Shown: positions 22,054 to 44,636 of the stretch, piece by piece | Numbering within the stretch: position 1 is the first letter of the stretch | Layout of the letters: each line of letters starts with the position of its first letter | Position numbers and translations under genes: made by a program | Assembly (NCBI GenBank): GCA_029262235.1 | Contig: JAJCZU010000006.1 | Coordinates: forward strand, 10,934-74,933 | DNA: 64,000 nt | From: Candidatus Eiseniibacteriota bacterium | Lineage (GTDB): Bacteria > Orphanbacterota > Orphanbacteria > Orphanbacterales > Orphanbacteraceae | Reading direction: 5' to 3' | The notes under the pieces: model-generated | Databases searched by the model: none | What the model was told of the DNA's origin: nothing | The model's input: the letters and a program-made list of their open reading frames with translations, nothing else

Positions 22054-22357
22054 GGCCGCGATTTTTTTCTGGAAAAATCGTGCCTGTTCCCACACCGGGA
22101 AGGCGAGAAGGAACGCGTTGAAAACAAAGTAGTTAGAAGGGTGTAAGGGTCTCTTTTCCGGCTCGCAGAGAGCAGCCGGAAGAGCGTGCCCATTACTGTA
22201 TTTTGGCTTAAATGAAGAAACTGCAATCACATAGAAGTCTCAAGGAGGACACGGAGTGGAGAACGACTCGTGGTTACAAAGCGTTATTCCGCTTTTATCT
22301 TTCCGAAGAAGAAAACCTCGCGGGATGACCATATCCCCGCAAAAGGAGGGCTCGAGT

Positions 22358-28300: not shown

Positions 28301-31300
28301 GAAACGGACATCGTCTGGGCAACGGACGAAAACGGTGACACGCTCGACGTCTACCCGGCCACGCAGGATGGTGACGGCGGCGATGCGCTCTACCTGATCA
28401 ACCAGCTGAATCTCCACGTTACTGTGGAAGACTCCAGCACGGTCGATTCGGTGTACGTCTGGTACCGTTGGAATCCGAAGGCCTACGAAGGTCTCAACAA
28501 CCTCAACAATCCGTGGCAGCGCGCCGCGGTTGTGGATGTTGTCTATCCGTTCAATCTCGATTGGGACATCAGCGGTCTTACCGATGGTTGCTATCAGTTC
28601 GCCGTGATTGCTCGCGACGAAACGTGCAACGAATCGGCTCCGCGTCTCAATCCCTACGAATTCACGAAGCTTTCGGTCCTGGCCGAAATCGAGTCCGCGC
28701 TCCGTCCGCTCGACTGGACGAAGAACGGCAATCTCGATCATCACAGCTCCGTGACGCTCGATACGGTTCAGGTCGGTGCTGAACTCTGGATCCGCGCGGA
28801 ACTTTCCGCGTCGGCCACGGCAGCGGACGCCGCGAATGCTGAAGTGTACTTCTGGTACGCCGACCGCGTTCTTGGTGAAGAGCTGACGGTTCAGACCTTC
28901 TACCCGTATATCTCGAGTGATGTTGCTGCTTCCGACAGCGGTTACAGCATCTTCGGTGACGAGGACAACTGGTGGTGTGACGTTCAGGTGCACGTGGATA
29001 CGGGCACGGCAGACGGCATCGCCACTTACTACACGAACGACGATTTCGAAGCTCTCGCGGCGCCGACGAAGTTTGACTTCACGGTCCGTGGCGGCTCGAA
29101 AATCGAGTTTGGTGCACAGCTCGCGTCGACGGACGTGGCCTACGTCAGCTACAACTACACTGGGTGGCAGCTGATCGCGGACTCACCGGATGACGACGTG
29201 GACGAAAACGGTTACTTCACGAGCGCCTGGGATCCGGCCGATCCGGTACCGGCACCTGAGAACAAGGGCCTGACGTGCGCCTACGACATGATCGCTCAGG
29301 TTCAGTACGACTTCGGTGGCGATGACAACTGTCTCGCCGAAACGCCGTGGTCCGAGAACAAGATCGTGCTGCTCCAGGAAATCGACGGACCGGAAGTCAC
29401 GCTTCACGGCTTCTTCTGGGACGAAGATTCTCCGTTCACGGAGTACAACTGGTCGGGTAACCCCATGCGCCAGTCGAACGGCTCGCATCGCAAGACGAAG
29501 CTCTGCGGTATCGAGTACGACGCGTTCGTGATTGTGGACTCGGTCGAAGCCGACAGCGTCAAGCTGGCGTTCGACTCGGGTACGCAGTACGACCTGACGA
29601 ACTACGTCACGGGTGACACCATCACGCTGACGATCACGATGAACGAACAGGACTTCCTGTGGTTCACGAATCCGGCGATCTTCCCGGATTCGATCGAGAA
29701 CGTACATCTTCTCTGGGACACCTCGGGTGACACGCAGAAGATCACCATGTACGACGACGGCGCGCACAACGACGGTGCAGCTGACGACGGCTGGTGGGGT
29801 ACGCAGGTCGACGTCATCGTGGGCAGCTCGCTCCGTGACTACAACTACCAGTTCGATATTGACGGCTCGGGCGACGAAGACGGCGTCTTCAACGATCCGC
29901 GCGTCAACGGCAGCGACGTTCAGGTTCCGGCCGACTTCTGGCACCGGAACTTCACGACGGAGCTGGGCGAAGGCACGCACACCGCGGTGGCGAGCGCCTG
30001 GGGGAACTTCGGTGTCCTCGGCACGAACACCACGAGCGCGCAGGGTCCGATCGTCTTCACGATCGACTGCACGCCGATGACGGTGGAAAGCCTGAATATC
30101 GTTCAGGATTGCGACTCCGACGACGAGTTCCAGTTCGTCGCGATCATTCGCGACGCGGGTGAGCTCATCACCGATATCTTTGAAGTAGACGAAGTCCGTT
30201 TCCAGTACGCGACCGACGTTCATAAAGACCGTTGGATCGATCTGGAAGACCTCGACTACTTCGATCGCGAAACCGGCTGGGTATGGGAAGGCAACTGGCC
30301 TTCGAGCGCTCTGCCGGCCAGCGATGGGATCGATAACAACGGCAACGGCATCACCGACGAACCGGAAGAAGAAGACTACGAATTCTGCATCCGCGTCGTG
30401 GTAGCCGATTGTGGCTGGGCCGTCACGGTCTTCCCGACTGTTCCGGAAGACGTAACGGTTCGTATCGATCGCAGTGCTCCGACGATCACGATGACCTCGC
30501 CGGCTCAGGGCGCTACGGTCACGTACGGTGAAGACTTCACCGTCTGTGCCCAGCCCGACGTGACCGGTCAGGAAATCGATTACTACGTGTTCTACTTCTC
30601 GGATCAGTCCGGGAACTGGATCCCGATCGACCCGACTCCGCAGGACGACGGTGATGATCCGTGGGTGCCCGCCGATGGTGACAACGAGGTCTGCGTGACC
30701 TTCGACACCGACTGGCTCGGCAACCAGGAAGATCAGTACGTGCAGTTCCTCGCAGTCGCCGTTGATAACGGCTGCAACCGTTCGGATTCGACGCAGACCA
30801 CGCCGATCGTGGCGGCTGTGAACGATACGATCGGGCCGGCGGCCTGCATCATTTCGATCGACCTTGATTGCGACAACGAAATCTCGGTCGCCGACCCGAA
30901 TCTCCGGATTCAGGGTGATGAAGTCACCGTTGTCGGTAAAGTCCTGAGCGACGCAGACCGTGTTTCGGTTGTGGAGTTCTGGCTCAACGACGGTACGACG
31001 AATCATCTCGTCGGCTTCGAGAACGACCTCAGCGGTAATCCGGCGGCTCTTTCGTTCACGTTCAACGCGAACGATTACATCGCCAGCGGTACGACTGCTG
31101 AAGGATCGATCTGGTTCCTTGCCCGCGACCTCGACGGCAACCCGGACCCGACACCTCTCATGGTGCCGGTGACATGGGACCGCGTGGATCCGAGCGTGAA
31201 CTACACCGCAGTGAACTTCGTAGACGGCACGGAAGACTATGCCGACGATGACATCGTCGACAACACGTCGCTCGCGCTGAAAGCGGATCCGTTCACGGGG

Positions 31301-34300
31301 CTCCTGACCTTCCGGGTCACGACCGCCGATGCGGATGTTAAATACATGACTCTCCAGGCCCGTCCGGACTCCGCATACTGGGGTCTCCTCGGTGACTGGG
31401 AAGACATCGACGACCTCGACTTCGAACCGCAGTTCGACGTGGGTGGCGAGTACCTCTGGTGGCTCGAAACCACGCCGGGTGACATCGATCTTGATGACGG
31501 CCCGTATGAATGGCGTGTCCTCGCAACGGACTTTGCCTGCAATACGAACGCGCTCGATCCGCTCGTGGTCAAAGCGACTCTCGACACGGAAGATCCGAAC
31601 TGCCTCTTCGTCGGCGACGACGCGGTGGCTGACGGTGACATCGGTCAGGTTGCTGCCGGTGACGATGTGGAACTGACCTGGTTCGGTCAGGACAACAACG
31701 GTGCACGCGGACGTACTGACATCGAGCATGTCACCTTCTGGTACTTCGGTGCCGACGGCGACACGGTGATCATCGGTACGGACGATACGCCGACGCCGGA
31801 TCAGCTCGACACGCCTGGAACGAAGTGGACGGCCAACGTGACCTGGACGACGCCGGACTGGCTCGTACGTGACACGGAATGGACGGTCTACGCCTGGGCA
31901 TACGATACGCCCTGGAATCGGACGACCTGTTCGTTCGATATCAATATTGAAGATCGTCACGCTCCGCAGGGCACGCGCCTCGTGGGTGTTTCGCCGGACG
32001 AAGACTGCAATATCTTCCCGCGCGAAATCAGTGAGACGGTTCTGAATGAGCAGACCATCACGTGGACGAACGTCATTGAACTCGAAGCCGAAACGGCGGT
32101 CGGGGACAGCGGCATCGCACGCGTCTGGTTCTATGCGATTAACGAAGCCGGTGACACTCTTGTCATCGACGTTGATGAAAACCCGAGTTCCACGACCGAC
32201 GGTGCACAGGATGTCTGGCGCTGGTACGGCGAGTGGGACTGCGAAGAACTCGATCATGCAACGGACACGCCGAAATGGGCCGAAGGCTCGTACACGGTGT
32301 ACGCGTGGGCAGTTGACGAAGAGGACAACGTCGAAGTACCGACCATGTGGTACAACTTCGTCCTCGACAAGACTGCTCCGAAGGCCGTCGCGACGATCAA
32401 CGGTTCGACGGATGACACCACCATCGAACGAGGCGACTCGGTCCATGTCGGCGCCAACGTTGACGGTAACGAAGACGTTACGGTCACGTGGTACATGCGC
32501 TCGCACTACGACTCGACGCCGGGTGAAGATGCGTGGCTGGCCATGACGGTTCCGAACGGATTCAACTTCATCTATGAAACGACGAATCCGGATGACAACC
32601 GTCCGTACAGCTTCGACTGGGCGACCTGGCTGCAGGACGCTCCGCTCGAAGTCGGAAACTGCTACGACATCGTCCCGGTGGCTGAAGACCTCGTGTGCAA
32701 CGCGGGTGACATTCAGTCTGCCTGGGCGGCTGATTGTGGCATTACCTTCTGTGTCGAGGACAACATGGCGCCCTGCGCCACGATTACGTACCTCCGTCGC
32801 GAACTGTGCGACGAAGAGGGGAACATCGAGCAGCCCGATCGCGAACGAGTCCGAGGATTCGCGAGCTTGACGGCCAAGGTGCTCCGTGGCGATACGGACA
32901 CGCAGTGGGTCGCCTTCCAGTACAGCATCGACAACGGTGCGACCTGGGTACTTGCGGACAATGATGTGGATTCCCTGGGTGACTTCTCTTGGACACTCAA
33001 CGATTGGAATTCGGATCTGCTCCCTGAAGGTGACATCCTCTGGCGTGCCGTTGCGTATGACGACGCTGGCAACTTTGATGAAAGTGCTGCCTGCTCGCCG
33101 ACGCGTACGCTCGTGATCGATCGTACGGGCCCGACCATTGAAGTGGTTACGCCGAACGACTTCGATCAGTGCCCGTTCGTTCGCAATGAGGACGGTGACC
33201 CCGTGGTCCCGCTCATCATTACGAGCTCGGACGATCAGCAGCAGGCGCAGTTCGGTCTGGTCTTTGAATGGAAGAAGACGATCTCCGACACGACGCGCTG
33301 GTCGACATCGGACATTGAGGACTTCCTCTACGACGAAAAGTCGGGCTACTACACGACGACTTGGAACGTGGACGAAAACGAAAGCGGCAAGTACGACTTC
33401 CGCGTCACGGCTCTCGACAGTGCGTGCAACTGGACTACAGTCATGATGGCGACGGAAGTCGTGATCGACGTGGACGCACCGCTAGTCAACATCACCCGCT
33501 TCGAGATCGATCGGAACGTGGGTGGTGAGCAGACAACGGTCGTCTCCCAGATCAGCCAGGGGCTCGTGGTGGATGTTTCGGCCGGCGAACCGGTCCGCAT
33601 CTATGCTACGGCAACCGATGATGAACAGGACATCCCCGGCCCGCTCGATCAGGGTGTCGATAGTGTCTACTTCGAAGTTACGGCTTCGCTCGGCGGCACC
33701 ATCTACCACCTCGATCTGGGTGAGCAGGATGAAAGCGACAGCAGCCACTTCGTGGCACACTGGAACACGTCCGCGCTCGACCCGGGTGATTACTTCATCC
33801 GTGCCCGCGCCGTGGACCACTGCGGAAACGAATCGTACTCCGACTGGAGTGAGGTCAATGTGATCGACGATTCGCCGCCGCGTGCCGCTGTGATCTGCTG
33901 GGAGCCGGATGTCATTAACGACATCAACGCGACGACGAAGGTCAAGGTTTACGCCACCGAGTGGTGCAACCAGCGTGTTGATGAAGTGATGTTCCAGTAC
34001 CAGCGCGTCGACGCCTCGCAGGGCGACGGTGGAACGGACGACGGAGATGGGGCCGCCGGTAAGGCTGCCGCTCCGTGGGTCACGTTCGGCACGCAGACGA
34101 ACGTCGCTACCGACGATTCGCTCTGGTGCGCTGAGCTCGAGATCGGCCGCGGTACGATCTGGAACATCGGTGATGAAATGCTTCTCCGCGCGGTAGCGAT
34201 CACGCTCCGTCCGGAAATCACTTCGAAGACGGATGCCTCCGAAGCTTCGGCTTCGAACAAGGGAGACATTCTCTACTTCGATGCGAATCCCCCGTACACG

Positions 34301-37069
34301 CAGGTTCGCGTGGTGGCGGATCGCTTCAATCGCGATCTCGAGTCGGTGCATCCGGAAGGCGGCGCCTGGCTCAGCTATAACGACGTGAAAGTCGTACCGA
34401 ACGACGGTCTCGGAACGAACCTCTGGGTCGAAATCGCTATCAATGACTCGATCGTTGATAACGCCGACTGGGGTACGATCGCGAAGCCCTGGGTTCTCGT
34501 AACGGCCGATCGGGTTGTCAATCCGGCCGGCCCTGACGGAACAGAGCCCAACTTCGAAGAAATCGTCGAAATGGATCCGATGAACGAAGGTGGCGGACTC
34601 AGCCCGTACAACTGGGGTGGGTTCAGCTACAAGGGTCTGATCGATACGATCGGATGCGGCGGTTACATCTACGTGAACGCGGCGGTAGTGGAAGACAGCG
34701 GCTCGGCGACCAGCCCGGCACGCGTCGACATTATCCGTCACGTGATTGCTGTCCATGAAGTCACGAACGGCGCGGGTACCCGTGGTCCGGTCGCGATTCC
34801 TGGCGACGACAATCTCACGGTAAGCATTCCTTCGGGCAACGGTGTCTACGGTGGTCTCATGCTGACGCAGGCGAACACGCCGAGCGCGTCGCGCGATGAG
34901 AACGAGCAGGCATATCGTCTCCGCCCGTTCGGACAGGCGTACAGCCTGAAGATGCTGGATTGTGCCGGCGGCTTCACGAACGACTGCCCCGAGTTCAATG
35001 ACGGCTATGATGCCCTCATTACCTGGAGCTACGACGAAGAAGACCTGACGGTGGTCGACGCCTTCGGTGACTCCGTCACGATCAACGAACTGACCGACAT
35101 CTACGTCGCCCACTGGGACGGAGATGAGTGGGAGGGCGGATTCGACGCGGATCTGCGGGTTGATACGGAGAACAACACCGTAACGGTCAACATCGGTAGC
35201 TTCTGCTACAACGATGACTCATTCCAGGATGACGCGGTCTGGAGCCTGGTTGGCGTTACCGCGCCGACGCAGGTTGCCTTCTCACCGTGGTGTGACGGAT
35301 ACACGAACGAAAGTCCGGTATTCACGGCCACGCTGACGGACCATGTCGGGAATGGATACATCGAGCGGATGGAGATCTTCATCGACAACGAACTGGTTGC
35401 TTCAAACGGCGATCCCTTCGATCAGCTGGAAGACGACAACTGCTTCACGAACGACGATGACTATATCTACGTCCTCGGTAACGGAAGCATCTGTGCTGAA
35501 GTAGTTACGTATCAAGAAGATCAGATGACGATCCAGTACACGCATTCGACGAATGCCGCGGATGTTCTGGACGGCGGGCCTCACACGCTCCGCATCCAGT
35601 ACACGTCGTCCGATGATGAGGACAATACGTACAACATCATCCAGGAGTTCTCGGTCGATAACACGCCGGTGGCCATGGAGTGGAGCGGAGGCTTCCTCGC
35701 TGGTCCGTGTGTTGGAACCGCAGACTGCTTCATCAGTGGTGATGAGGACGGATCGCACGAAGGAATCACGGTCAAGCTGACCGACCTGGAGTCCGGCGTT
35801 CATACGCAGGGCAACAACGTCACGGCGACCCTGAATATCGTGTTCGGCGCTCTGGCTGAACTCGTCGGGAACACCGCAAGCCTGGGTGTCCTCGGTAACT
35901 TCGTAACGGTGAACGGTGTTGCCGTTCTGCCGGTCGCAGAACTCGGTCTCAAGATGGACGTCTGGCTCGTCGACGACGAAGACGATCAGACCGACATCGA
36001 TGAGTTCTGGGAACGCGCTCTCATTCAGTCGGCTACCCCGGTCATGCTCACGTATGAACCGGAGATCTGCCCGTACTCGAATGAGGCGAACTGTGACGAT
36101 TCGGTACATTACGATCCCAGTGACGACCTCTATGTCACGCTTCCGCTCACGGTGAATCTGAAGCCGTACGACGGACGTGAAATCGAAGTCGTTCTCTATA
36201 GCTCGAAAGTGGATCACATCGGATTCGACTCCAACCTGATCGGTATCTTCGGTGATGCCCCCGAAGGTTGGAATGAAGATGACGATGAAGAATTCACGCG
36301 GTACATCTTTGGACCGTTCGATTGTGTCGGTAACGTCGGATCGCAGTACGCTGCGCGCCGATTCATCGTGGACAGCTCGGCTCCGGTCGTAACGTTCTCG
36401 ACGCCGAACCAGGTCAACCCGGGATCGGACCTTCCGATCTGGGCGACGATCGCGGACGGTACGGAATCCGCCAGCGGCGCGGGAGTGGACGAGTCCACGC
36501 TCGAGCTCACGCTGAACGGACCGAGTGGTGAATGCTTCTCGATCAACCCGGCGACGTACGTTGTTGACACCTCGGAGAAGGCTTCGAACGACAGCAACGC
36601 GGTCATCGAATCGATCGAGTGGGATGGTGAAATGGTTCACGCTGTGGTCTCCGGCCTCGAAGAGAAGGGGAATTACACCCTCACGCTCTCCGGTCGTGAC
36701 CGCACGGGGAACAGCTTCACCGCCACGCACAGCTTCGTGGTCGGCAGCTCGGTGCTGACGATTACGGACGCTGCGGTGTACCCGAACCCCGTCGATCCGT
36801 CTGATGGAGATGAAGCTTGCATTAACTTCCTCCTCGGCGGAACGCGCGATGCGCAGGTCCAGTACATGATCTACGACTTCGCGGGTGACCTCGTCTACGA
36901 GTCGCCGGTCGCTTCCATGGCACCTGGTCAGATCAGCCAGTGCTGGAACGGTCGGACGAACGGCGGGACGATGGTGGCCAACGGTGGTTACCTGGCCCGG
37001 ATTCTGGTGAACGACGGAGCCGGCACGAAAGCCGAAACCGTCAAGATCGCCATCCGGAAGGGAGACTAA
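22358..37069 (+). CDS. Giant (~4,900 aa) highly acidic repetitive cell-surface protein with signal peptide and type IX secretion C-terminal sorting domain (SprB-like adhesin analogue)
   Basis: RBS AAGGAGG then ATG 22358 (MSSRRKGRLKTLSLFALLLTGMLFAPQADA); one uninterrupted 14.7-kb ORF; very Asp/Thr/Gly-rich with recurrent Ca-binding-type loops (DENGNGAFDLGEYF, DYNGNKVFDGGGD, DYDGDGYSPIDP, DDDGDE); last ~90 aa (VYPNP.DPSDGDEACI.F.L.G..DAQV.Y.IYDFAGDLVY.......G.....W.G....G..VANGGYLARI....G.....TVKIAIRK) is a Por_Secre_tail-type domain. Confidence 0.85.
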   Translation: MSSRRKGRLKTLSLFALLLTGMLFAPQADALPEVGSLTIRDVTYDSGADRLDIVFDRTVSAAAATDFRFNDGTTYAGGAPVISGLLGNVVSLTTFSTAPVPGTTTVAIKDSLAAITGLEIITGNATATRDFSFHPIVTGPVIASALYTAGESDLDPTNDVITVEFNTGVTFVPAAHDTLFSMPQLKGTQTIGDDDGDEFLTLIFGADETTVLDYVSTVGLASDILAGMGIQDSNTDEMTSLTRVRVGSGSGAFPLYAPWYADAGGVGGGNDRFYYVMSGDVSFNTPGIGITGITTFSGAGVAPTFSGEVWSTPNRRTVVGVRNAHKDGNYLSAPVLGTSTRPTLPVDADLVNATLTTAADSADSGPAGVPIGFGPAIIAAYWDGNADQIILYFSEGFGTNPVAADFQINGDVATGIGAGWTLATVAGREVRLNAPADTTWLEGDVINIETTPVMVGLSGFVPSFTGAAGTVDNAIPIRDATPPSSNLALTDLLERNPQDTLSHGFISLYENPDLDVCYYLILSKIGEEVNNGDFDTTLNVCGSIPFPNPQGVDGDTATVIIDITPGLNDATGTVIAQGDRVFFGVAPVDKEGNIGQSYRVPGSLVAGPVACPRDFITIADDLRISLGADSIVVTDNNIWINGHADPVPDTLVGDTLAVDPFDIVVVYQDAALTDSIAAGTATDVGSFVIGLPSDAGDANDWIYLTSRDQFGNQCPGFTQILNDQTPPAITKHGDPKNPWAIYGPGDSVCVFVEGADTTAGVAIDQISSLLSGTVEILTFHMPQEIVASASFVAWGSDQTDNDGDWISGAVGDSAVCGPAYRRPADTCRVGTEDYAEPYCDENGNGAFDLGEYFVDYNGNKVFDGGGDFNLDYLDAPYTGDTTNIGGEGPTMRQELAMYKASFANLDAALANPEPVQWLICRVRLLDKNENESILLDTITFDNLAPEQSQFSRLARRDSSQSGAGSGNLLPDIGGTANCYTVGNFVDFDVTTYSDSHDVDYVLLQINTGGGWGDLNFDPNGDLNADGQPGKAGIDDDFDGWADTLDVQVHNAMQNSLAADAADTDSTPAAGDGIWALNDGIDNDNNGVIDDATDTTYAANFMDDDDEDGMLDGTTVSTLDAVIGGGFGPGVNMFPQYLHVAGIAATDTSLNVPGDGFSDETALLFPDIGTPIPLTGTDEVFGWAALNGFNLNMRMIQHHYNIPNETQFSLRAVPYDTRGGRIGPMSKAGGVFDDDIAANRTGNSDPTKAIQICLIVDTTGVACAIDVAAFGENTGADSAAAANIDYTAWDSEDSTYTSPAAPLSYTLTAAGSGAEIDSVVFYAMMWNVDPVDPDTWLGTWTRVGADSDGIPYNTDWTAPIVTNKPCDKTLRYYFYCQAFGASGLFEEALADSDTALAELVVEVVDHVFPITNITSVGNDYDLTNGATVPADSAIHIRIEGTADLDDRDGLAGFSDITSIEFQQRRTNNGNNSAGPWYTIGSIATPFDSMPPVDVVWRTDTLTARDYDVRAIGIDCEGNSNIKFTQVVHVSIDTLGLRAYIEPQVFESSDSITLTAQVFIHDESIDNVDFQVWPDSNENCLPDENISWVSIYNDDNDDSSSADPGGDVTLRVGSGTLYEVSQLTPGDKYVDFDADHGYIDYDGDGYSPIDPVVWDDNSDGFYDESDGDTTVIGQVVSTGTPPAITSFDADEFYADYNTNGDLDDDDWIFKEGLGGFEAGSDEHHTWQGGWNVADLSGSWLIRSVATDELGNVDTDSNTAIPYICCGLDVDAPAAQVCKIAMGLGGFSWYDGMPVDSVVCGDNEWVKLWACLNDSADYADLDYIRFEYSVDNVNWTDLDVNDDNDFYVDIDDTLGFSLGDAIVRDDYSADTTFTVDASDVLLRNGIAGDISDIYGYRMFPLSDEDGAGGGDEDGDGNADEDDFDEEDSRDPYCVYFNIRDLTMNDGLFRTSTRVYFRAVAVDENGNEDTDPTITQFVIQENVDPETDIVWATDENGDTLDVYPATQDGDGGDALYLINQLNLHVTVEDSSTVDSVYVWYRWNPKAYEGLNNLNNPWQRAAVVDVVYPFNLDWDISGLTDGCYQFAVIARDETCNESAPRLNPYEFTKLSVLAEIESALRPLDWTKNGNLDHHSSVTLDTVQVGAELWIRAELSASATAADAANAEVYFWYADRVLGEELTVQTFYPYISSDVAASDSGYSIFGDEDNWWCDVQVHVDTGTADGIATYYTNDDFEALAAPTKFDFTVRGGSKIEFGAQLASTDVAYVSYNYTGWQLIADSPDDDVDENGYFTSAWDPADPVPAPENKGLTCAYDMIAQVQYDFGGDDNCLAETPWSENKIVLLQEIDGPEVTLHGFFWDEDSPFTEYNWSGNPMRQSNGSHRKTKLCGIEYDAFVIVDSVEADSVKLAFDSGTQYDLTNYVTGDTITLTITMNEQDFLWFTNPAIFPDSIENVHLLWDTSGDTQKITMYDDGAHNDGAADDGWWGTQVDVIVGSSLRDYNYQFDIDGSGDEDGVFNDPRVNGSDVQVPADFWHRNFTTELGEGTHTAVASAWGNFGVLGTNTTSAQGPIVFTIDCTPMTVESLNIVQDCDSDDEFQFVAIIRDAGELITDIFEVDEVRFQYATDVHKDRWIDLEDLDYFDRETGWVWEGNWPSSALPASDGIDNNGNGITDEPEEEDYEFCIRVVVADCGWAVTVFPTVPEDVTVRIDRSAPTITMTSPAQGATVTYGEDFTVCAQPDVTGQEIDYYVFYFSDQSGNWIPIDPTPQDDGDDPWVPADGDNEVCVTFDTDWLGNQEDQYVQFLAVAVDNGCNRSDSTQTTPIVAAVNDTIGPAACIISIDLDCDNEISVADPNLRIQGDEVTVVGKVLSDADRVSVVEFWLNDGTTNHLVGFENDLSGNPAALSFTFNANDYIASGTTAEGSIWFLARDLDGNPDPTPLMVPVTWDRVDPSVNYTAVNFVDGTEDYADDDIVDNTSLALKADPFTGLLTFRVTTADADVKYMTLQARPDSAYWGLLGDWEDIDDLDFEPQFDVGGEYLWWLETTPGDIDLDDGPYEWRVLATDFACNTNALDPLVVKATLDTEDPNCLFVGDDAVADGDIGQVAAGDDVELTWFGQDNNGARGRTDIEHVTFWYFGADGDTVIIGTDDTPTPDQLDTPGTKWTANVTWTTPDWLVRDTEWTVYAWAYDTPWNRTTCSFDINIEDRHAPQGTRLVGVSPDEDCNIFPREISETVLNEQTITWTNVIELEAETAVGDSGIARVWFYAINEAGDTLVIDVDENPSSTTDGAQDVWRWYGEWDCEELDHATDTPKWAEGSYTVYAWAVDEEDNVEVPTMWYNFVLDKTAPKAVATINGSTDDTTIERGDSVHVGANVDGNEDVTVTWYMRSHYDSTPGEDAWLAMTVPNGFNFIYETTNPDDNRPYSFDWATWLQDAPLEVGNCYDIVPVAEDLVCNAGDIQSAWAADCGITFCVEDNMAPCATITYLRRELCDEEGNIEQPDRERVRGFASLTAKVLRGDTDTQWVAFQYSIDNGATWVLADNDVDSLGDFSWTLNDWNSDLLPEGDILWRAVAYDDAGNFDESAACSPTRTLVIDRTGPTIEVVTPNDFDQCPFVRNEDGDPVVPLIITSSDDQQQAQFGLVFEWKKTISDTTRWSTSDIEDFLYDEKSGYYTTTWNVDENESGKYDFRVTALDSACNWTTVMMATEVVIDVDAPLVNITRFEIDRNVGGEQTTVVSQISQGLVVDVSAGEPVRIYATATDDEQDIPGPLDQGVDSVYFEVTASLGGTIYHLDLGEQDESDSSHFVAHWNTSALDPGDYFIRARAVDHCGNESYSDWSEVNVIDDSPPRAAVICWEPDVINDINATTKVKVYATEWCNQRVDEVMFQYQRVDASQGDGGTDDGDGAAGKAAAPWVTFGTQTNVATDDSLWCAELEIGRGTIWNIGDEMLLRAVAITLRPEITSKTDASEASASNKGDILYFDANPPYTQVRVVADRFNRDLESVHPEGGAWLSYNDVKVVPNDGLGTNLWVEIAINDSIVDNADWGTIAKPWVLVTADRVVNPAGPDGTEPNFEEIVEMDPMNEGGGLSPYNWGGFSYKGLIDTIGCGGYIYVNAAVVEDSGSATSPARVDIIRHVIAVHEVTNGAGTRGPVAIPGDDNLTVSIPSGNGVYGGLMLTQANTPSASRDENEQAYRLRPFGQAYSLKMLDCAGGFTNDCPEFNDGYDALITWSYDEEDLTVVDAFGDSVTINELTDIYVAHWDGDEWEGGFDADLRVDTENNTVTVNIGSFCYNDDSFQDDAVWSLVGVTAPTQVAFSPWCDGYTNESPVFTATLTDHVGNGYIERMEIFIDNELVASNGDPFDQLEDDNCFTNDDDYIYVLGNGSICAEVVTYQEDQMTIQYTHSTNAADVLDGGPHTLRIQYTSSDDEDNTYNIIQEFSVDNTPVAMEWSGGFLAGPCVGTADCFISGDEDGSHEGITVKLTDLESGVHTQGNNVTATLNIVFGALAELVGNTASLGVLGNFVTVNGVAVLPVAELGLKMDVWLVDDEDDQTDIDEFWERALIQSATPVMLTYEPEICPYSNEANCDDSVHYDPSDDLYVTLPLTVNLKPYDGREIEVVLYSSKVDHIGFDSNLIGIFGDAPEGWNEDDDEEFTRYIFGPFDCVGNVGSQYAARRFIVDSSAPVVTFSTPNQVNPGSDLPIWATIADGTESASGAGVDESTLELTLNGPSGECFSINPATYVVDTSEKASNDSNAVIESIEWDGEMVHAVVSGLEEKGNYTLTLSGRDRTGNSFTATHSFVVGSSVLTITDAAVYPNPVDPSDGDEACINFLLGGTRDAQVQYMIYDFAGDLVYESPVASMAPGQISQCWNGRTNGGTMVANGGYLARILVNDGAGTKAETVKIAIRKGD

Positions 37070-39005: not shown

Positions 39006-39039
39006 GCCGGTTCAAGGACTCTCATAGGGAACTCTGCTA

Positions 39040-39070
39040 GGGGGACGAGTCTCTGCTCGTCCCCCTTTTT
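39040..39070 (+). terminator. Rho-independent terminator
   Basis: GGGGGACGAG-TCTCTG-CTCGTCCCCC hairpin followed by TTTTT. Confidence 0.8.
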
Positions 39071-39085: not shown

Positions 39086-42000
39086 TTGCCGCCCCCCGCC
39101 TCTCGCGATACGCTGTCACCGGAGCGCTTTCCGCGCACCGCTCTCATTGTCCTGCCGTACCGTGAAGGGGCCGCCGTGCAGATCCTCGATGAAAAACTCG
39201 TCCTCTCCGCCACCGATCTTGCGAACCACCTCGGCTGTTCGCATCTGACGCAGCTCGCGCGCATGGCCGCCGAGCGCGAGATCGAAATGCCGCGCTACAA
39301 AGACGATCAGCTTGCCGTTCTCGAGAAGAGGGGACTCGAACACGAGGCAGCGTACGTCGACCATCTCCGATCGAAAGGTCGCACGGTCGTTTCTCTGCGC
39401 GACTTCGAAGGAGATGCGGGCAAACGCACGGTGGCGGCGATGCGGGAAGGAAGCGACGTCATTGTTCAGGCGGAACTGGCGGACGAAGGATGGAGGGGGC
39501 GCGCGGATTTTCTGATGCGCGTCGAGACGGCGAGCGCTCTCGGAGACTGGTCGTACGAAGTCGTCGATACGAAGCTGGCGCAGGAAACGCGCGGCGGAAC
39601 GATCCTGCAGCTCTGCCTGTACACCGAGCTCGTCGGTAAACTGCAGGGACTCGTCCCCGAGAACATGTACGTCGTGCGACCCGGCAAGGACTTCGAGCCG
39701 GACGCCTATCGCTTCGCCGAGTATCGGGCGTACTATGCGCTCGTGCAGGGTGACATGCGACGTGACCTTCCCGACGACCCCACCGTTCCGCGCCCCGAAA
39801 CGTACCCGGATCCGGTCCCGCACTGCGACATCTGCAAGTGGTGGTCACGCTGCGAGAAGCGACGCCGGGGCGACGATCATCTTTCGTACGTCGCCGGCAT
39901 TCACCGCTCCCATGTCGACGAGCTGCGGGAGCAGGGCACGAGCACGCTGGCCGGATGGGCAGCGTCGGAGAAGCCGCTCTGGCGCGCCCCGCGACGCGGC
40001 CTGACGAGGACGTTCGAGCGCCTCCACCGCCAGGCTCAGCTGCAGTTCGAAGGCCGGCGCACGCAAAAGCCGGTTCATGAGTTGCTCGCACTGGAAGAGG
40101 GACGGGGCCTTCGTCGCCTGCCTGAGCCGAGTCGTTCCGACGTGTTTCTGGACTTCGAGGGTGATGTCTTCGTGGAAGGGGGAGGTCTCGAGTACCTGTT
40201 CGGCTATGCGTACCGGGACGAGGACAACGAACTCGAGTACGAGTACGTGTGGGCGACCGACTTCGAAACGGAGCGCGCCGCGTTCGAACGATTTCTGACG
40301 TTCGCGCTGAACCGCTGGAAGGGAGATCTCGGGAGCGGCACGGGTGGCGACTACGGGTTCCACATCTACCATTTCGCCCCGTACGAACCGGTGGCGCTGA
40401 AGCGAATGGCGGGAAAGTACGGCGTGGGCGGTGACGCGCTCGACCGTCTTCTGCGCGGGGAGCGACTGATCGACCTGCATCGCGTGGTGCGCGAAGGGGT
40501 GCAGGCCAGCGTCGAGCGCTACTCACTGAAGGACCTCGAACCGTTCTTCGGTTACTCGCGCGACCTCGCGCTCCGTGACGCCTCGCTTGCGAAGCATCGC
40601 CTCGAGCACGAACTCGAAATGGGAACGCCGGAGGCCATACTCGAAGAGGATCGCGACCTCGTGATCCGCTACAACCGCGACGACTGTTTCGCGACGGCGG
40701 GGCTGCGCGACTGGCTGGAGGATCGTCGCGCCGAGTGGATCGCGCGCGGCGAGGAGTTGCCGCGGCCGGAGCTCAAATCAGGCGACCCGGGCGATCAGGT
40801 CGAAGAGGCGGAGGACGAAGCGGGCCGGGTGGCGGCCGGTCTTCTCGCGGCGCTTCCGGAAGAGCGCGACGAGTGGAACGAAACCGAGCGCAGAATGCAT
40901 CTGCTCGCGCATCTCGTGCCGTACTTCCAGCGTGAGTTGAAATGTGCCTGGTGGGACTTCTTTCGGCTTCACGAACTGACGGAAGAGGAGGCGCTCGGAG
41001 AGAGGAAGGCGATTGCCGGCTTGATGTTCGAAAAGGAAGTCGGGCGGACGAAAGGCGGCATCCCGATCCAGCGATACTCTTTTCCTGATCAGGAACTCGC
41101 GCTCGATTCGGGAGACAAGCTCGAAGAAGTTCTCGGCGAAAAAGTGGGCGTGGTCGAGCACTTTGATCCACGCGAGAGCACGATCGACATACGGAAGATG
41201 CGCGCGTCCGCCGAGCGCCACCCGAAGATGGTGCATGAAGGCGGTGTCATAACTCCCGGCGACCTCCATCGCTCGCTGCTGGCGTTCGCGCAGTCGCTTC
41301 TGCCCGCGGGGGACGGCGCCCCGGACGAAGTCGCGCGTGAGCTGCTGACGGTCATGGCGGGCTCGAAGCCGCTGGCGCCGGGCGATCGGGATGCGCGTCT
41401 CGACCTCCTCTTTCGCAGGCCCCCGCAGGCGGCGGAGGCCACGCCGACCCTCTTTCCGACGCTGCGGCAGCAGGACGAGCCGGTGGCGGAAGCCGCTCTC
41501 CGGATTACGCGCGGCCTGGACCGGAGCATCCTCCCCGTGCAGGGCCCGCCCGGCACCGGTAAGACGTACGTGGGAGGGGAGATGATTGCCCGCCTGGCGG
41601 CCTCAGGAGCCCGCGTCGGGGTCACGGCCGTCAGCCATAAAGTGATCGTCCATCTCCTCCGATCGGCCCTGGAGCGCGCCGACGCGCTCGAGATCGCATT
41701 ACAGGCGTCCCACAAGTGGGGAGACCCGCCCGGGGAGAACGAACGGATCGGCAGCGTCGACAACAAGACGTTCCTGGCGGCCCTGGGAGAGGGCCGGATC
41801 GTGGGGGGCACGGCCTGGATGTGGTCCCGCGAGGATGCCCGGGAGTGTCTCGACGTGCTGTTCATCGACGAGGCGGGGCAGCTGTCGCTTGCCATGGCCC
41901 TGGCGGCCTCGCGCGCCGCGAAGAACGTCGTGCTTCTGGGCGATCCGCAGCAGCTTCAGCAGCCGCAGCGGGGGGCGCACCCCGAAGGGGCTGACGTCTC

Positions 42001-42694
42001 CGCTCTGGAGCATCTGCTTGACGGCGCCAAGGTCATCGATGGCGACCGCGGGCTGCTGCTCGACCGCACCTGGCGCCTGCATCCCGCGATCTGTCGTTTT
42101 ACATCCGAACTGTTCTACGAAAACCGGCTCGAGCCCATCGACACAATGAAAAACCAGCGCCTCGTAACCGACTCTGCGTTCCGCGAGAGCGGTCTTTACT
42201 TCGTTCCCGTATCGCACGAAGGGAACCAGAGCAGCGCGCCGGAGGAGGCCGAAGCGATCGCGGCTCTCGTGAAGAACCTGCTTGCCACAACGCGCGCGTG
42301 GATCAACGCGGACGGCGTCACGCAAAAGTTCACACCGAAAGAGATTCTGATCGTGGCCCCGTACAACGCGCAGGTCGGGCGTTTGCGCCGGCTCATCCCT
42401 GACGTGCGCATCGGCACCGTCGACAAGTTCCAGGGGCAGGAGGCGCCCGTCGTGATCTATTCGATGACGAGTTCTTCCGCAGAGGACGCGCCCCGCGGCA
42501 TGTCGTTTCTGTACGACCCGCATCGCTTCAACGTGGCCGTGAGCCGCGCCCGCTGCATTTCGATCGTGGTCGCGACGCCCGCGCTCCTGCGCCCCGAATG
42601 CCGCACGCCCCACCAGATGCGAATGGCAAACGTGCTCTGCCGCTATCACGAAATGGCACACGAGGTGCGGCTTCCGGGGACGAGCGCGTCGTGA
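39086..42694 (+). CDS. Dna2-like nuclease-helicase: TM0106-type RecB/Cas4-like Fe-S nuclease + RNase-H-like exonuclease domain + SF1B (Upf1/Dna2-like) helicase
   Basis: ORF opens at TTG 39086; GTG 39176 (VQILDEKLV...) is an alternative start; N-terminal region with C...Cx2Cx5C cluster (HCDICKWWSRC); middle region matches the TM0106-family exonuclease part (HIYHFAPYEPVALKRM...RYSLKDLEPFFGY); C-terminal SF1 motifs (QGPPGTGKT Walker A, VLFIDEAGQ motif II, LLGDPQQLQQP, TVDKFQGQE, NVAVSRAR). Confidence 0.75.
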   Translation: MPPPASRDTLSPERFPRTALIVLPYREGAAVQILDEKLVLSATDLANHLGCSHLTQLARMAAEREIEMPRYKDDQLAVLEKRGLEHEAAYVDHLRSKGRTVVSLRDFEGDAGKRTVAAMREGSDVIVQAELADEGWRGRADFLMRVETASALGDWSYEVVDTKLAQETRGGTILQLCLYTELVGKLQGLVPENMYVVRPGKDFEPDAYRFAEYRAYYALVQGDMRRDLPDDPTVPRPETYPDPVPHCDICKWWSRCEKRRRGDDHLSYVAGIHRSHVDELREQGTSTLAGWAASEKPLWRAPRRGLTRTFERLHRQAQLQFEGRRTQKPVHELLALEEGRGLRRLPEPSRSDVFLDFEGDVFVEGGGLEYLFGYAYRDEDNELEYEYVWATDFETERAAFERFLTFALNRWKGDLGSGTGGDYGFHIYHFAPYEPVALKRMAGKYGVGGDALDRLLRGERLIDLHRVVREGVQASVERYSLKDLEPFFGYSRDLALRDASLAKHRLEHELEMGTPEAILEEDRDLVIRYNRDDCFATAGLRDWLEDRRAEWIARGEELPRPELKSGDPGDQVEEAEDEAGRVAAGLLAALPEERDEWNETERRMHLLAHLVPYFQRELKCAWWDFFRLHELTEEEALGERKAIAGLMFEKEVGRTKGGIPIQRYSFPDQELALDSGDKLEEVLGEKVGVVEHFDPRESTIDIRKMRASAERHPKMVHEGGVITPGDLHRSLLAFAQSLLPAGDGAPDEVARELLTVMAGSKPLAPGDRDARLDLLFRRPPQAAEATPTLFPTLRQQDEPVAEAALRITRGLDRSILPVQGPPGTGKTYVGGEMIARLAASGARVGVTAVSHKVIVHLLRSALERADALEIALQASHKWGDPPGENERIGSVDNKTFLAALGEGRIVGGTAWMWSREDARECLDVLFIDEAGQLSLAMALAASRAAKNVVLLGDPQQLQQPQRGAHPEGADVSALEHLLDGAKVIDGDRGLLLDRTWRLHPAICRFTSELFYENRLEPIDTMKNQRLVTDSAFRESGLYFVPVSHEGNQSSAPEEAEAIAALVKNLLATTRAWINADGVTQKFTPKEILIVAPYNAQVGRLRRLIPDVRIGTVDKFQGQEAPVVIYSMTSSSAEDAPRGMSFLYDPHRFNVAVSRARCISIVVATPALLRPECRTPHQMRMANVLCRYHEMAHEVRLPGTSAS

Positions 42695-43092
42695 AGAAGC
42701 GCATCCAGGATGCGAAGAAGCGCATCCAGGATGTGAAGAAGCGCATCCAGGATGCGAAGAAGCGCGATCTGAACCTGTCGAACTACGACCGGATCTATGC
42801 CGTCGTGAAACGCATCCCGAAGGGACGCGTGGCGACGTATGGACAGGTCGCGTCGCTTGCCGGGCTGCCAGGGCACGCGCGCCAGGTGGGCTACGCCCTG
42901 CACGCGCTTCCCGAGAACCATCGCCTCCCGTGGCACCGCGTCGTGAATGCGAAGGGCGAAGTGTCCCCCCGCGCCTATCCGTTCGCCGAGGACATGCAGC
43001 GGGCGTTTCTCGAAGCCGAAGGGATCCCGTTCGACGAGCGCAACCGGTTCCCGCTCGAAGAGTATCGCTGGCGCCCCCGTAAGGCGCTCTGA
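42691..43092 (+). CDS. atl: Alkyltransferase-like protein Atl (O6-alkylguanine-binding MGMT-family domain lacking the active-site Cys), with N-terminal basic heptad repeats
   Basis: GTG 42691 overlaps the helicase stop (GTGA); alternative GTG 42733; MGMT DNA-binding domain motifs YGQVA, GLPGHARQVGYAL, and PWHRVV in place of PCHRV (Trp substitution, the hallmark of ATL proteins). Confidence 0.75.
   Translation: MKKRIQDAKKRIQDVKKRIQDAKKRDLNLSNYDRIYAVVKRIPKGRVATYGQVASLAGLPGHARQVGYALHALPENHRLPWHRVVNAKGEVSPRAYPFAEDMQRAFLEAEGIPFDERNRFPLEEYRWRPRKAL
42694..42765 (+). repeat. Perfect/near-perfect 21-nt in-frame tandem repeat (3.4 copies: AAGAAGCGCATCCAGGATG[C/T]G), encoding KKRIQDA/V
   Basis: Read directly: three 21-nt units differing at one base plus a partial fourth copy, starting 1 nt after the helicase stop and forming the N-terminus of the Atl ORF. 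Confidence 0.85.
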
Positions 43093-43143
43093 CCGAATTC
43101 CCGTATCGCGCTATACTGAAAACGGCACACTCGTCCGCCCCTG

Positions 43144-43632: not shown

Positions 43633-44139
43633 ATGTCGAACTTTTATCCGTCAATTACAGAAGAACAGGAGACGCTGATCAGGAATGCGCCGCTGTTTTT
43701 CGTCGCGAGCGTCGACCCCGGGGCCATGCCCGGTCCTTCGCCCGCGGAGACGGGACCGCTCAACGTGTCCCCGAAAGGCGGTTCCCCGCTTCACGTACTC
43801 GGTCCGAATCGTGTGGCGTACGTCGACTTTCTCGGCAGCGGCAACGAAACCGCCCGGCATGTGCAGGCGGGGAGCCCGATCACGCTGATGGTATGTTCGT
43901 TCGAAGAGGAAGACGCGGCCATCGTGCGCCTGTACGGAAAGGCGGTCGTGCGCCCGGTTGACGACGAAGATCTTCCCGAAGGAATCTTCGAAACGAAAGC
44001 CGCGCAGTTCAAGTTCAAGGCCCGGCAGGTGATCGACGTGGAAGTGGAAAAGACGATGACGAGTTGCGGGTACGGTGTTCCGATTCTCGAGCCCGTACGA
44101 CAGAGAAGCAAGGCCGAGTGGGGAAGGAAGTACAAATGA
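43633..44139 (+). CDS. Pyridoxamine 5'-phosphate oxidase-like FMN-binding family protein
   Basis: PNPOx-like split-barrel pattern (APLFFVASVD...PLNVSPKGG...LHVLGPNRVAYVDFLGSGNETARHV.AGSPITLMV). Confidence 0.65.
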   Translation: MSNFYPSITEEQETLIRNAPLFFVASVDPGAMPGPSPAETGPLNVSPKGGSPLHVLGPNRVAYVDFLGSGNETARHVQAGSPITLMVCSFEEEDAAIVRLYGKAVVRPVDDEDLPEGIFETKAAQFKFKARQVIDVEVEKTMTSCGYGVPILEPVRQRSKAEWGRKYK

Positions 44140-44636
44140 CGAACCAGCTGGCCGCGATAGTACGCAGGGAGCTGGGCGCCCTGTCGCGCGAGCTCAATCT
44201 CTACCCGGACGAAACGTACCTGTGGGCGCGACCGCCGGGAACGCCGAACACAGCGGGGAATCTCGCGCTTCATATCGTCGGCAACCTGCGCGCCCTGATC
44301 GGAGCACAGCTCGGCGGCACAGGGTATGAGCGGGACCGCGACGCGGAGTTTGCGAAGCGCGGTGTCGCGCGCAGCGAGATTCTGGCCGAAATCGAAGTAG
44401 CCGCGCGCGAAGTGGAGGAGACGCTGGCCGGCCTGACCGCCGCTGACCTGGCGGCCCCGTACCCCGTCGCGATTGCGGGAGTCCGGTTTCGCGTCGACGA
44501 CTTCCTGCTCCATCTTGTAAGCCACCTCTCGTTTCATCTGGGGCAGATCGATTATCACAGGCGGATCGTAACCGGCGTGAAGACGGGCGCGGACACGCTC
44601 GCGATCCCGGCGCTCGCGTCGGCCGAACCGCAGTAA
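44136..44636 (+). CDS. DinB/YfiT-like (DinB_2 superfamily) four-helix-bundle protein
   Basis: ATG 44136 overlaps the upstream stop (ATGA); conserved His positions (LALHIVGNLRALIG ... HLVSHLSFHLGQIDYHRR). Confidence 0.5.
   Translation: MTNQLAAIVRRELGALSRELNLYPDETYLWARPPGTPNTAGNLALHIVGNLRALIGAQLGGTGYERDRDAEFAKRGVARSEILAEIEVAAREVEETLAGLTAADLAAPYPVAIAGVRFRVDDFLLHLVSHLSFHLGQIDYHRRIVTGVKTGADTLAIPALASAEPQ

Follow-up and report, generated by a model that had tools for sequence, protein, structure and literature searches.

The two-gene locus

The window, that is, the whole 64,000-nucleotide stretch of Candidatus Eiseniibacteriota bacterium DNA that was analysed, carries on its forward strand a gene for a Dna2/Bad-like nuclease-helicase of the TM0106 family (39176-42694), identified by profiles, alignments and an AlphaFold model, and directly after it an alkyltransferase-like (Atl) gene of 133 aa (42691-43092), identified by PF01035, Atl structures and orthologues. 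A preceding sequence-only reading had placed here an open reading frame of about 1,200 aa beginning at 39086. The frame is confirmed in the ORF list (39086-42694, forward strand), where it opens mechanically at a TTG codon (1,202 aa), but the true start is almost certainly GTG 39176, since this codon aligns with the ATG starts of both orthologues and all homologues begin there, which gives a protein of about 1,172 aa. Residue numbers of the large protein are counted from 39086 in what follows. For the Atl gene, the ORF list gives ATG 42598, while the orthologues support the in-frame GTG 42691, which overlaps the helicase TGA stop (42692-42694) by 4 nt as GTGA; the overlap of stop and start noticed earlier thus holds.

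Upstream, a strong intrinsic terminator hairpin with a 12-bp stem and a T-tract (39039-39066, forward strand) follows an OmpA gene; its sequence is invariant in the two orthologous loci (L081, L082) and, as a sequence feature, it marks the start of a transcription unit separate from OmpA. Just past the Atl stop, before a DoxX-like gene, lies the one sigma-70-like promoter match found (43089-43117, forward strand), a consensus match only, against 0.6 expected, and this site may represent the end of the two-gene unit. The spacing between helicase and Atl is -4, -4 and +12 nt across the three members of the lineage, and this tight coupling, together with the lack of a terminator-like site at the junction, suggests that co-expression is maintained. 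That the coupling is kept in all three members is a point against the two genes being mere neighbours.

Domain architecture of the two products

All the domain calls made from the sequence alone, namely a Cas4/RecB-like Fe-S nuclease, a TM0106-type RNase-H-like region and an Upf1/Dna2-type helicase, proved correct by profiles, alignments and fold. Judged from its sequence, the large protein is made of three domains: an Fe-S RecB/Cas4-type nuclease, an RNase-H-fold exonuclease-like domain and an Upf1/Dna2-type SF1B helicase. Indeed, it scores 218.6 bits against TIGR03491 ("TM0106 family RecB-like putative nuclease"), above the NCBIfam cut-off of 97.45, and is thereby a member of the TM0106 family (TIGR03491/COG2251); the match spans aa 41-544 and profile positions 2-462 of 462. 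The Pfam matches are RNase_H_2 (aa 353-544, 48 bits), AAA_11, AAA_12 (104 bits), AAA_30 and, weakly, PDDEXK_1 for the nuclease. The resulting order, a PD-(D/E)xK nuclease, then the PF13482 RNase-H-fold domain, then AAA/helicase domains, is that of COG2251, in which the nuclease and the PF13482 domain often occur with tandem AAA/helicase domains (PMC3985635).

The N-terminal iron-staple PD-(D/E)xK (RecB/Cas4-type) nuclease domain (39206-39955, forward strand) is identified by its invariant residues, by TIGR03491 and by the weak PDDEXK_1 match. In alignments of 24 and of 44 homologues, the cysteines C51, C247, C250 and C256 (C...Cx2Cx5C) are invariant, as are D141, D161-T-K163 and Q175...Y179; four cysteines therefore span a RecB-family nuclease with the D, (D/E)xK and QxxxY motifs, which is the iron-staple pattern of Dna2 and Bad. 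In the central RNase-H-fold domain (PF13482; 40142-40717, forward strand; 48 bits for a cut-off of 22), the residues D356xE358, E434 and Y529x3D533 are invariant or nearly so in the same alignments. This domain is predicted to be a PolB-like 3'-5' exonuclease; COG2251 has been assigned to a 3'-5' exonuclease clade (PMC3985635). The C-terminal SF1B (Upf1/Dna2/IGHMBP2-like) helicase core (41438-42598, forward strand), supported by both sequence and fold matches, has its Walker A GPPGTGKT at nt 41543-41566, and its motifs GPPGxGKT (820-827) and DEAGQ (motif II, 928-932) are again invariant in both alignments; by sequence it matches Upf1, IGHMBP2 and Dna2 chains. The AlphaFold model (pLDDT 85.7, pTM 0.82) finds in mouse Dna2 (5EAN) its best solved-structure match by Foldseek (E = 9e-26), over both nuclease and helicase parts, and so presents a nuclease N-terminal to an SF1B helicase with a Dna2-resembling fold, at a global TM-score of only 0.36.

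The small gene product is, on comparison of sequences, an Atl protein, as its PWHR in place of PCHR had suggested. It scores 87 bits against PF01035 over profile positions 3-81 of 81 and has no N-terminal transferase domain; the nearest solved structures are Vibrio Atl (2KIF, 95 bits) and S. pombe Atl1 (3GVA, 78 bits), whereas true transferase chains (Ogt/MGMT) reach at most 34 bits and the scores against NCBIfam Ogt models stay under their cut-offs. The stretch L-P-W-H-R-V-V is encoded at nt 42925-42945, with PWHR at nt 42928-42939 and invariant in the Atl orthologues. PWHRVV aligns with PWHRVI of Atl1, PWFRVI of vpAtl and PCHRVI of M. tuberculosis Ogt, and because a Trp thus replaces the active-site acceptor Cys, the protein would be unable to transfer an alkyl group. 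An ordinary Ogt with a catalytic Cys, named beforehand as the alternative, does not fit the PWHR alignment and the scores against Atl structures. The protein is longer than its orthologues (133 versus 109 aa): an in-frame 21-bp tandem repeat at the 5' end of the gene (42693-42765, forward strand; 3.5 copies, 96% matches) encodes KKRIQDA three times inside a 24-aa N-terminal insert that both orthologues lack.

Reach of the adjacency and contexts of the family

Among the loci sampled, which are family samples of helicase and Atl, drawn from up to 600 pattern matches per search, rather than whole-genome censuses, Atl lies downstream of the helicase in both relatives at 84-87% identity, and only there. 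In both, the OmpA-helicase-Atl-DoxX-PNPOx-DinB block is wholly syntenic, and identity within the lineage (90-95% for Atl, 84-87% for the helicase) points to purifying selection on both genes. No Atl stands beside the helicase in the ten homologues at 49-55% identity or in the three plasmid copies examined. Among 80 genome loci listed (28-47% identity, many phyla), a single one (L003) has an Atl gene; it lies some 1.6 kb upstream, is encoded on the opposite strand and is separated from the helicase by another ORF. Conversely, the 80 closest Atl loci, which come from metagenomes, showed no helicase-nuclease similarity among the matches listed; for 47 of them the sequence extends 1 kb or more upstream. 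The co-occurrence of Atl with TM0106 helicases across genomes that had been envisaged was thus not seen, and the adjacency does not recur in independent lineages among the loci sampled. In consequence, the proposal of a dedicated lesion-repair or immunity module is not supported: the adjacency is essentially unique to one lineage, an outcome named beforehand as speaking against it. Since the two genes adjoin only in the closest relatives, what is seen here is probably a local arrangement rather than a new, conserved system for repair or immunity.

The large protein is encoded by a sporadic, mobile accessory gene, with homologues in 66 plasmid records, 26 of them conjugative, and in defence islands; none was found in phage records. 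The family has no fixed partner, as no neighbour family is found at more than 7 of the 87 loci sampled and the immediate neighbours belong to more than 100 Pfam families, each in at most 3 of 74 proteins. The tightly coupled downstream gene varies by lineage (McrBC, GmrSD, RmuC, NUDIX, DUF4391, DUF445). In particular, RmuC and NUDIX genes lie directly downstream of the helicase in other lineages, McrB and McrC do so in L043 and L062 and lie upstream on the opposite strand in L045, and in L085 GmrSD and the helicase stop share 4 nt. LigD partners the family in three lineages; in L176 and L177 it shares 1 nt with the start of the helicase. Such operons with repair or modified-DNA-recognising genes suggest that lineage-specific partnerships may be the usual deployment of the family.

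Defence-island neighbours, which had been proposed as a thing to look for, are present for most relatives at 49-55% identity and absent among the scanned neighbours of the window copy. Indeed, seven of the ten homologues at this distance sit among defence or mobile genes, including toxin-antitoxin pairs, type I restriction-modification, GmrSD, CBASS, Gabija-like OLD+UvrD, BrxC/TerB, an MmeI-type methylase, a DEAD-MZB helicase and integrases, and plasmid copies adjoin VapBC/integrase and ubiquitin-like systems; many distant homologues have ordinary neighbours. The window copy is chromosomal, its scanned 64-kb surroundings are housekeeping genes with no integrase, toxin-antitoxin or restriction genes among the scanned neighbours, and its codon composition is native (GC3 0.79, host range 0.67-0.84).

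Interpretation and comparison with known systems

The explanation held with moderate confidence is a lineage-specific chromosomal operon made up of two DNA-maintenance genes, each of a known kind and each distributed independently of the other. Atl and the large enzyme would then act in separate pathways and share only co-expression, with no dedicated partnership. If Geobacillus Bad and eukaryotic Dna2 are a guide, the large enzyme would engage DNA at a free 5' single-stranded tail or flap, its SF1B motor would then translocate 5'->3', and the Fe-S RecB-type nuclease, placed ahead of the motor, would cut the tracked strand, while the trimming of 3' ends may fall to the central DEDD-like RNase-H-fold domain; the Atl protein, acting as an ordinary one, would flip out O6-alkylguanine and mark the lesion for nucleotide excision repair. 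Against separate pathways counts the fact that both products act on DNA, which makes a functional link a priori likelier than for random neighbours, and real cooperation of Atl and nuclease-helicase is possible, if on the doubtful side.

One form of cooperation would be a dedicated lesion-processing pair, in which the site of an O6-alkylguanine or bulky O6 adduct, once bound by Atl, passes to the co-translated Dna2-like nuclease-helicase, and this enzyme unwinds the damaged strand and cuts it out, either without UvrABC or in parallel with it. The coupling in all three lineage members, the purifying selection on both genes and the family operons with repair genes elsewhere (LigD, RmuC, NUDIX) argue for such a pair, yet it is unlikely, as the adjacency is absent outside one shallow lineage in both search directions among the loci sampled and no fusion or interaction evidence connects the two. 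It is moreover established that characterised Atl proteins act through nucleotide excision repair, and none is known to require a private nuclease. In addition, Bad (Geobacillus stearothermophilus; Wilkinson et al. 2020, PMC7430649), as described in the main text, requires a free 5' single-stranded end for loading, nicks or gaps being insufficient, and a duplex lesion bound by Atl offers no such end.

Much less probable still is an antiviral module with the nuclease-helicase as defence effector and an Atl that reads modified (phage) guanines, in analogy to McrBC and GmrSD, the modification-dependent modules that take its downstream place in other lineages: these neighbours, the defence or mobile surroundings of most homologues at 49-55% identity and the contexts of the plasmid copies argue for it, but the window copy lies in a stable syntenic housekeeping region with native composition, phage records hold no homologue, many distant homologues have ordinary neighbours, the LigD pairing points to repair, Atl has no PADLOC match, and the large protein matches through a generic helicase core with partial profile coverage. 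The likening of the large protein to Nhi-like antiviral effectors therefore keeps some support from defence islands and plasmids at the level of the family, though not for the chromosomal copy here, and a role of Atl in defence against modified phage DNA is not indicated.

The two-gene operon of separately acting products, which remains the preferred reading, resembles known systems in its parts. The Atl protein has the same single MGMT C-terminal-type domain as known Atl proteins (S. pombe Atl1 and Vibrio parahaemolyticus vpAtl; Atl proteins also occur in E. coli and Thermus), with PWHRV for PCHRV, and keeps the base-flipping helix-turn-helix Tyr and Arg (TYGQVA...HARQVG). It differs from them in the KKRIQDA-repeat insert and in the translational coupling of its gene to one for a nuclease-helicase. 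No second case of this pairing came up among the loci and papers searched, and none of these papers contained both "alkyltransferase-like" and "defense island".

Like Nhi, Mokosh MkoA/MkoC and Dpd DpdJ, the large protein carries both a nuclease and an SF1 Upf1-like helicase core, and, as with antiphage helicase systems, many family homologues sit in defence islands. Its PADLOC matches, to MkoA (1e-41; profile positions 754-1088 of 1112), MkoC and DpdJ, are confined to the helicase region and leave the nuclease and RNase-H parts unmatched; no defence-system model was matched over its full length, and none named Nhi was matched.

Mouse Dna2 (5EAN/5EAX) is the best whole-chain structural match (1,273 aligned columns), with the same order of an Fe-S PD-(D/E)xK nuclease followed by an Upf1-like SF1B helicase; the sequence matches lie in the helicase core; the two proteins share only 13-14% identity, and their global TM-score is low. 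Dna2 lacks the RNase-H-fold exonuclease-like domain that the large protein has between nuclease and helicase, and is essential and universal in eukaryotes, whereas the family here is accessory and patchy.

Bad is also close in description, and a bound Fe-S cluster, translocation in the 5'-3' direction and endonuclease activity on ssDNA are known for Bad only (PMC7430649). As described there, Bad has the same N-terminal Fe-S "iron-staple" RecB-family nuclease, central domain and C-terminal SF1B helicase, a similar size (1,245 aa versus 1,172-1,202 aa here) and a likewise sporadic distribution across phyla. Its authors assigned no fold to the central domain, which here matches PF13482 with DEDD-like residues, and its description mentions no neighbour or partner gene, nor does the main text use the word "operon" (PMC7430649), whereas Atl is coupled here. 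In both proteins 665 residues separate the nuclease motif III Asp from the Walker A Lys (D150 to K815 in Bad, PMC7430649; D161 to K826 here), and by description and motif spacing the large protein would thus belong to the same family as Bad.

Domain content and gene boundaries of the two proteins

On the forward strand, the ORF list of the window shows an ORF of 1,202 amino acids (39086..42694) and, after it, one of the MGMT family that ends at 43092. The ATG starts of the orthologues align to a GTG at 39176 of the window and all homologues begin at that point, which makes 1,172 aa the most likely length of the large protein encoded by the first gene (39176..42694); residue numbers are counted here from 39086. 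Over aa 41-544 it matches TIGR03491, the "TM0106 family RecB-like putative nuclease" model, with 218.6 bits against a cut-off of 97.45, and in Pfam it matches RNase_H_2 (aa 353-544), AAA_11, AAA_12 and AAA_30, with PDDEXK_1 as a weak hit. In alignments with 23 and 43 homologues, the cysteines C51, C247, C250 and C256 are invariant, and so are the nuclease motifs D141, D161-T-K163 and Q175xxxY179 and every SF1 helicase motif, including GPPGxGKT and DEAGQ. In the RNase-H-fold domain D356xE358 and Y529x3D533 are also invariant, and E434 is nearly so. An AlphaFold model built from a 44-sequence alignment is confident (pLDDT 85.7, pTM 0.82), and mouse Dna2 (5EAN, E = 9e-26) is the solved structure that it matches best, with an alignment that spans both nuclease and helicase; the next matches, Upf1, IGHMBP2 and Sen1, cover the helicase part. 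The sequence-only reading had described a Dna2-like Fe-S nuclease joined to an exonuclease-like region and an SF1B helicase, and this description is correct, because the profile matches, the invariant residues, the Dna2 fold match and searches of PDB sequences all agree with it.

The central domain (window 40142-40717, aa 353-544) corresponds to PF13482 and carries the DxE, E and Yx3D pattern typical of DEDDy 3'-5' exonucleases. A survey of the RNase-H superfamily groups COG2251, which combines PF13482, DUF83 and tandem AAA domains, with predicted 3'-5' exonucleases (PMC3985635). A literature search on TM0106 or TIGR03491 returned nothing relevant.

The smaller gene (42691..43092, forward strand, 133 aa) encodes an alkyltransferase-like (Atl) protein. 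It matches PF01035 with 87 bits and falls below the cut-off of every NCBIfam Ogt/Ada model. Its closest solved relatives are the Atl of Vibrio parahaemolyticus (2KIF, 95 bits) and Atl1 of S. pombe (3GVA, 78 bits), while true alkyltransferases score at most 34 bits. In particular, its PWHRV aligns to PWHRV of Atl1 and to PCHRV of M. tuberculosis Ogt. Judged by sequence, this is a true Atl protein, as had been proposed from the replacement of PCHR by PWHR; an ordinary Ogt is rejected since the acceptor position is Trp and not Cys. At the Atl N-terminus, an in-frame 21-bp tandem repeat (window 42693-42765; 3.5 copies, 96% matches) encodes KKRIQDA three times within a 24-aa insert that is missing from both orthologues, as if a basic and possibly helical tail had recently expanded. 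Both proteins belong to known kinds, the large one to the TM0106 family and the small one to the Atl proteins. A pseudogene or annotation artefact is rejected, as both ORFs are intact and conserved and their homologues match them in length.

A terminator with a 12-bp stem and a T-tract lies at 39039-39066, 3' of the upstream OmpA gene, and is identical in both orthologous loci (L081 and L082). The TGA stop of the helicase (42692-42694) is overlapped by the in-frame GTG at 42691 that starts the Atl gene, no terminator-like site was found at this 4-nt overlap, and a promoter-like site follows immediately 3' of the Atl stop. Given the overlap, the terminator-free junction and the flanking sites, the two genes very probably form a bicistronic unit. 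The GTG at 42691 matches the Atl start in L081, where the overlap is also 4 nt; in L082 the Atl gene begins 12 nt past the helicase stop.

Genomic setting and conservation of the pair

The surroundings of the helicase in the window are of a housekeeping type, with a 4,937-aa surface protein, OmpA, a C25 peptidase, AnmK, SpoIID, GH3 and sulfatases, and no integrase, toxin-antitoxin or restriction gene was seen among the window genes scanned. GC3 values of 0.79 for the helicase and 0.83 for Atl lie within the host range of 0.67-0.84. The locus is neither a defence island nor a recent insertion, and recent horizontal transfer of the helicase is rejected on the basis of this GC3 and of the synteny in relatives. 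The giant ORF (22256-37069) is rich in acidic and Thr/Asp residues, has a counterpart of 4,920 aa in L082, and has a product that looks like a surface protein; the next gene encodes an OmpA-family protein that carries thrombospondin type 3 repeats. C-terminal FlgD_ig domains occur in the proteins at 8518-12615 (the C25 peptidase) and 51176-53068.

The TM0106-helicase family is large, with at least 5,671 proteins at E <= 1e-10, many of them full-length at about 50% identity and spread over several phyla. Only two proteins exceed 55% identity to the window helicase, namely P0002 from a Gemmatimonadetes MAG (87%) and P0003 from a sequencing-run assembly (84%), and in both loci Atl lies directly downstream. 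The whole OmpA-helicase-Atl-DoxX-like-PNPOx-DinB_2 block is syntenic in both relatives, as is the giant upstream gene in L082; these loci give no independent support for the pairing. Further away, a PF01035 gene is found near the helicase in none of ten homologues at 49-55% identity and in none of three annotated plasmid copies. A tblastn search with Atl and a six-frame P[CW]HR scan of 80 genome loci sampled among the matches listed, from many phyla and at 28-47% identity, recovered a single real Atl (L003), which lies some 1.6 kb upstream of the helicase on the other strand, with another ORF in between. Conversely, no helicase-nuclease similarity was detected in 80 metagenomic loci of the closest Atl relatives (57-69% identity), again a sample among the matches listed, in which the upstream sequence reaches at least 1 kb in 47 and at least 3 kb in 21. 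Beside these Atl relatives the other neighbours of the window are not conserved either, and no recurring partner appears in more than a handful of the loci. Some 1 kb downstream of the window Atl lies a DinB_2/DUF1572 gene (44064-44636), and one metagenomic locus has a DinB_2 gene of 48% identity (L117:1879-2340) some 0.5 kb upstream of its Atl relative, a single recurrence that is probably due to chance. Searches of the literature found nothing relevant linking Atl to helicase gene neighbourhoods and no paper on Atl and defense islands.

Thus, the annotations of the sequence-only reading all stand, but the dedicated lesion-repair or nucleic-acid immunity module it had proposed is not supported, as among the loci sampled the adjacency is confined to the window and two syntenic relatives at 84-87% identity. 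On present evidence, helicase and Atl share an operon only as a local arrangement, whose chief value is therefore that of a cheap, testable lead.

Partners of the helicase family in other lineages

The TM0106 helicase has no fixed partner. Its most frequent neighbour family is present in 7 of 87 loci, and a Pfam census restricted to the immediate neighbours in the 80 genome loci yielded more than 100 families, each in at most 3 of 74 proteins, in which ordinary genes such as MFS transporters, peptidases, RNA polymerase and LysR are mixed with WYL/WCX, RmuC, Mrr, TerB, TrwC, HEPN and DNA methylases. Type IV restriction modules stand beside the helicase in several lineages: McrB (DUF4357+AAA_5) and McrC are tightly coupled directly downstream (L043:9322-13103, L062:9413-12900) or lie upstream on the opposite strand (L045:277-4235), and GmrSD follows directly downstream with a 4-nt overlap (L085:8423-10075). 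Elsewhere, the tightly coupled downstream gene is RmuC (L025, L060), NUDIX (L066) or, in other lineages, DUF4391, DUF445 or an SNase-like protein. Three of the ten homologues at 49-55% identity form one clade, with roughly 50% identity to the window protein (L176:4971-10411, L177:4992-10411, L091:3933-9474). In this clade the gene for the NHEJ ligase LigD overlaps the helicase start by 1 nt or stops 25 nt short of it, and another ATP-dependent ligase is close by together with a MerR-TPR gene. LigD is also near the helicase in two unrelated loci (L007 and L021), which suggests a role in double-strand-break repair for some members. The picture is thus one of an accessory enzyme that lineages pair with differing repair or restriction genes.

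The contexts of the other seven of these ten homologues are defence or mobile islands. They comprise PemK and PIN toxin-antitoxin pairs; ResIII, AAA_13, RadC and an integrase along with GmrSD (L085); HsdM/HsdS, an integrase and ParE; an HsdM fragment and CHAT; BrxC/BrxD, TerB, a methylase, an integrase, Gabija-like OLD-TOPRIM+UvrD and a transposase; a CBASS cyclase with SAVED-HNH; and a MmeI-type methylase, AAA_15/DUF3696, Macro and a DEAD-MZB helicase. L088, L090, L085, L086 and L178 are loci of this type. Helicase homologues also turn up in 66 plasmid records; 53 are full-length, 26 lie on conjugative plasmids, and none comes from a phage record. Beside repABC on the Ensifer adhaerens plasmid pCTYH.Ch1_3 (L094:1648-11369), a "helicase-related protein" (~1,070 aa), a 1,034-aa hypothetical protein and the TM0106 nuclease-helicase are encoded back to back on one strand and may form a multi-gene system. 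On the Phenylobacterium plasmid pA (L095:4600-11333), a ubiquitin-like cluster of multiubiquitin, E2/UBC, ThiF and DUF6527 lies immediately upstream of the helicase on the same strand. The recurrence of this widespread accessory family beside LigD in three lineages and beside type IV restriction modules in several more, as well as in defence islands and on plasmids, could guide experiments on the function of Bad-like enzymes, named after the bacterial DNA2-like helicase-nuclease of Geobacillus stearothermophilus.

Possible roles of the pair and comparison with Bad

Collectively, the pair is probably a lineage-specific operon that joins two known kinds of DNA-maintenance genes which normally occur independently. 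The large enzyme would most likely process 5' single-stranded tails or flaps, by analogy with Bad and Dna2, and the Atl would most likely flag O6-alkylguanine for nucleotide excision repair (NER), the established role of its family. Genuine Atl-directed lesion processing with the helicase is unlikely: tight coupling is kept in all three members of the lineage and the family habitually forms lineage-specific operons with repair genes, but the pairing does not recur in the loci sampled and Bad needs a free 5' single-stranded DNA end for loading (PMC7430649). Should the two proteins cooperate, this would be the first Atl shown to act with a nuclease-helicase instead of the NER machinery, and bacterial DNA2-like enzymes would gain a physiological role.

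A broader proposal, to which we give a somewhat smaller chance still, is that this Gemmatimonadota lineage has co-opted Atl to read damaged or modified bases for a Bad/Dna2-like nuclease-helicase, leading to NER-independent excision of O6-alkylguanine adducts or to modification-dependent restriction; in that case Atl would belong, with McrBC, GmrSD and LigD, to a set of exchangeable reader partners taken up by the enzyme family from lineage to lineage, and bacterial DNA2-like enzymes would be general effectors sent to DNA by lineage-specific targeting proteins. A defence module in which Atl reads modified bases is very improbable, since the housekeeping setting of the window copy and the lack of any defence signal for Atl outweigh the analogy to the McrBC and GmrSD partners and the defence-island contexts of relatives. 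Indeed, PADLOC models match the helicase core of the large protein only (MkoA, MkoC, DpdJ) and gave no match to Atl.

Returning to the operon of independent maintenance genes, the closest characterised analogue of its large protein is Bad, for which no later literature assigning a function was found. According to its description (PMC7430649), Bad is a monomeric Fe-S protein of 1,245 aa with a three-domain layout, sporadic among bacteria and with a physiological role stated as unknown, which acts as a ssDNA-dependent ATPase, a 5'-3' translocase and helicase and an endonuclease preferring 5' overhangs, and in vitro displays no intrinsic exonuclease activity. The central domain of Bad is unassigned, bioinformatics being described there as yielding no information on it; the domain of the window protein matches PF13482. 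The spacing of two residues is consistent with membership of both in the same family: in Bad the mutated Asp of motif III (D150) and the Lys of Walker A (K815) lie 665 residues apart, and their counterparts in the window protein (D161, K826) are separated by the same distance.
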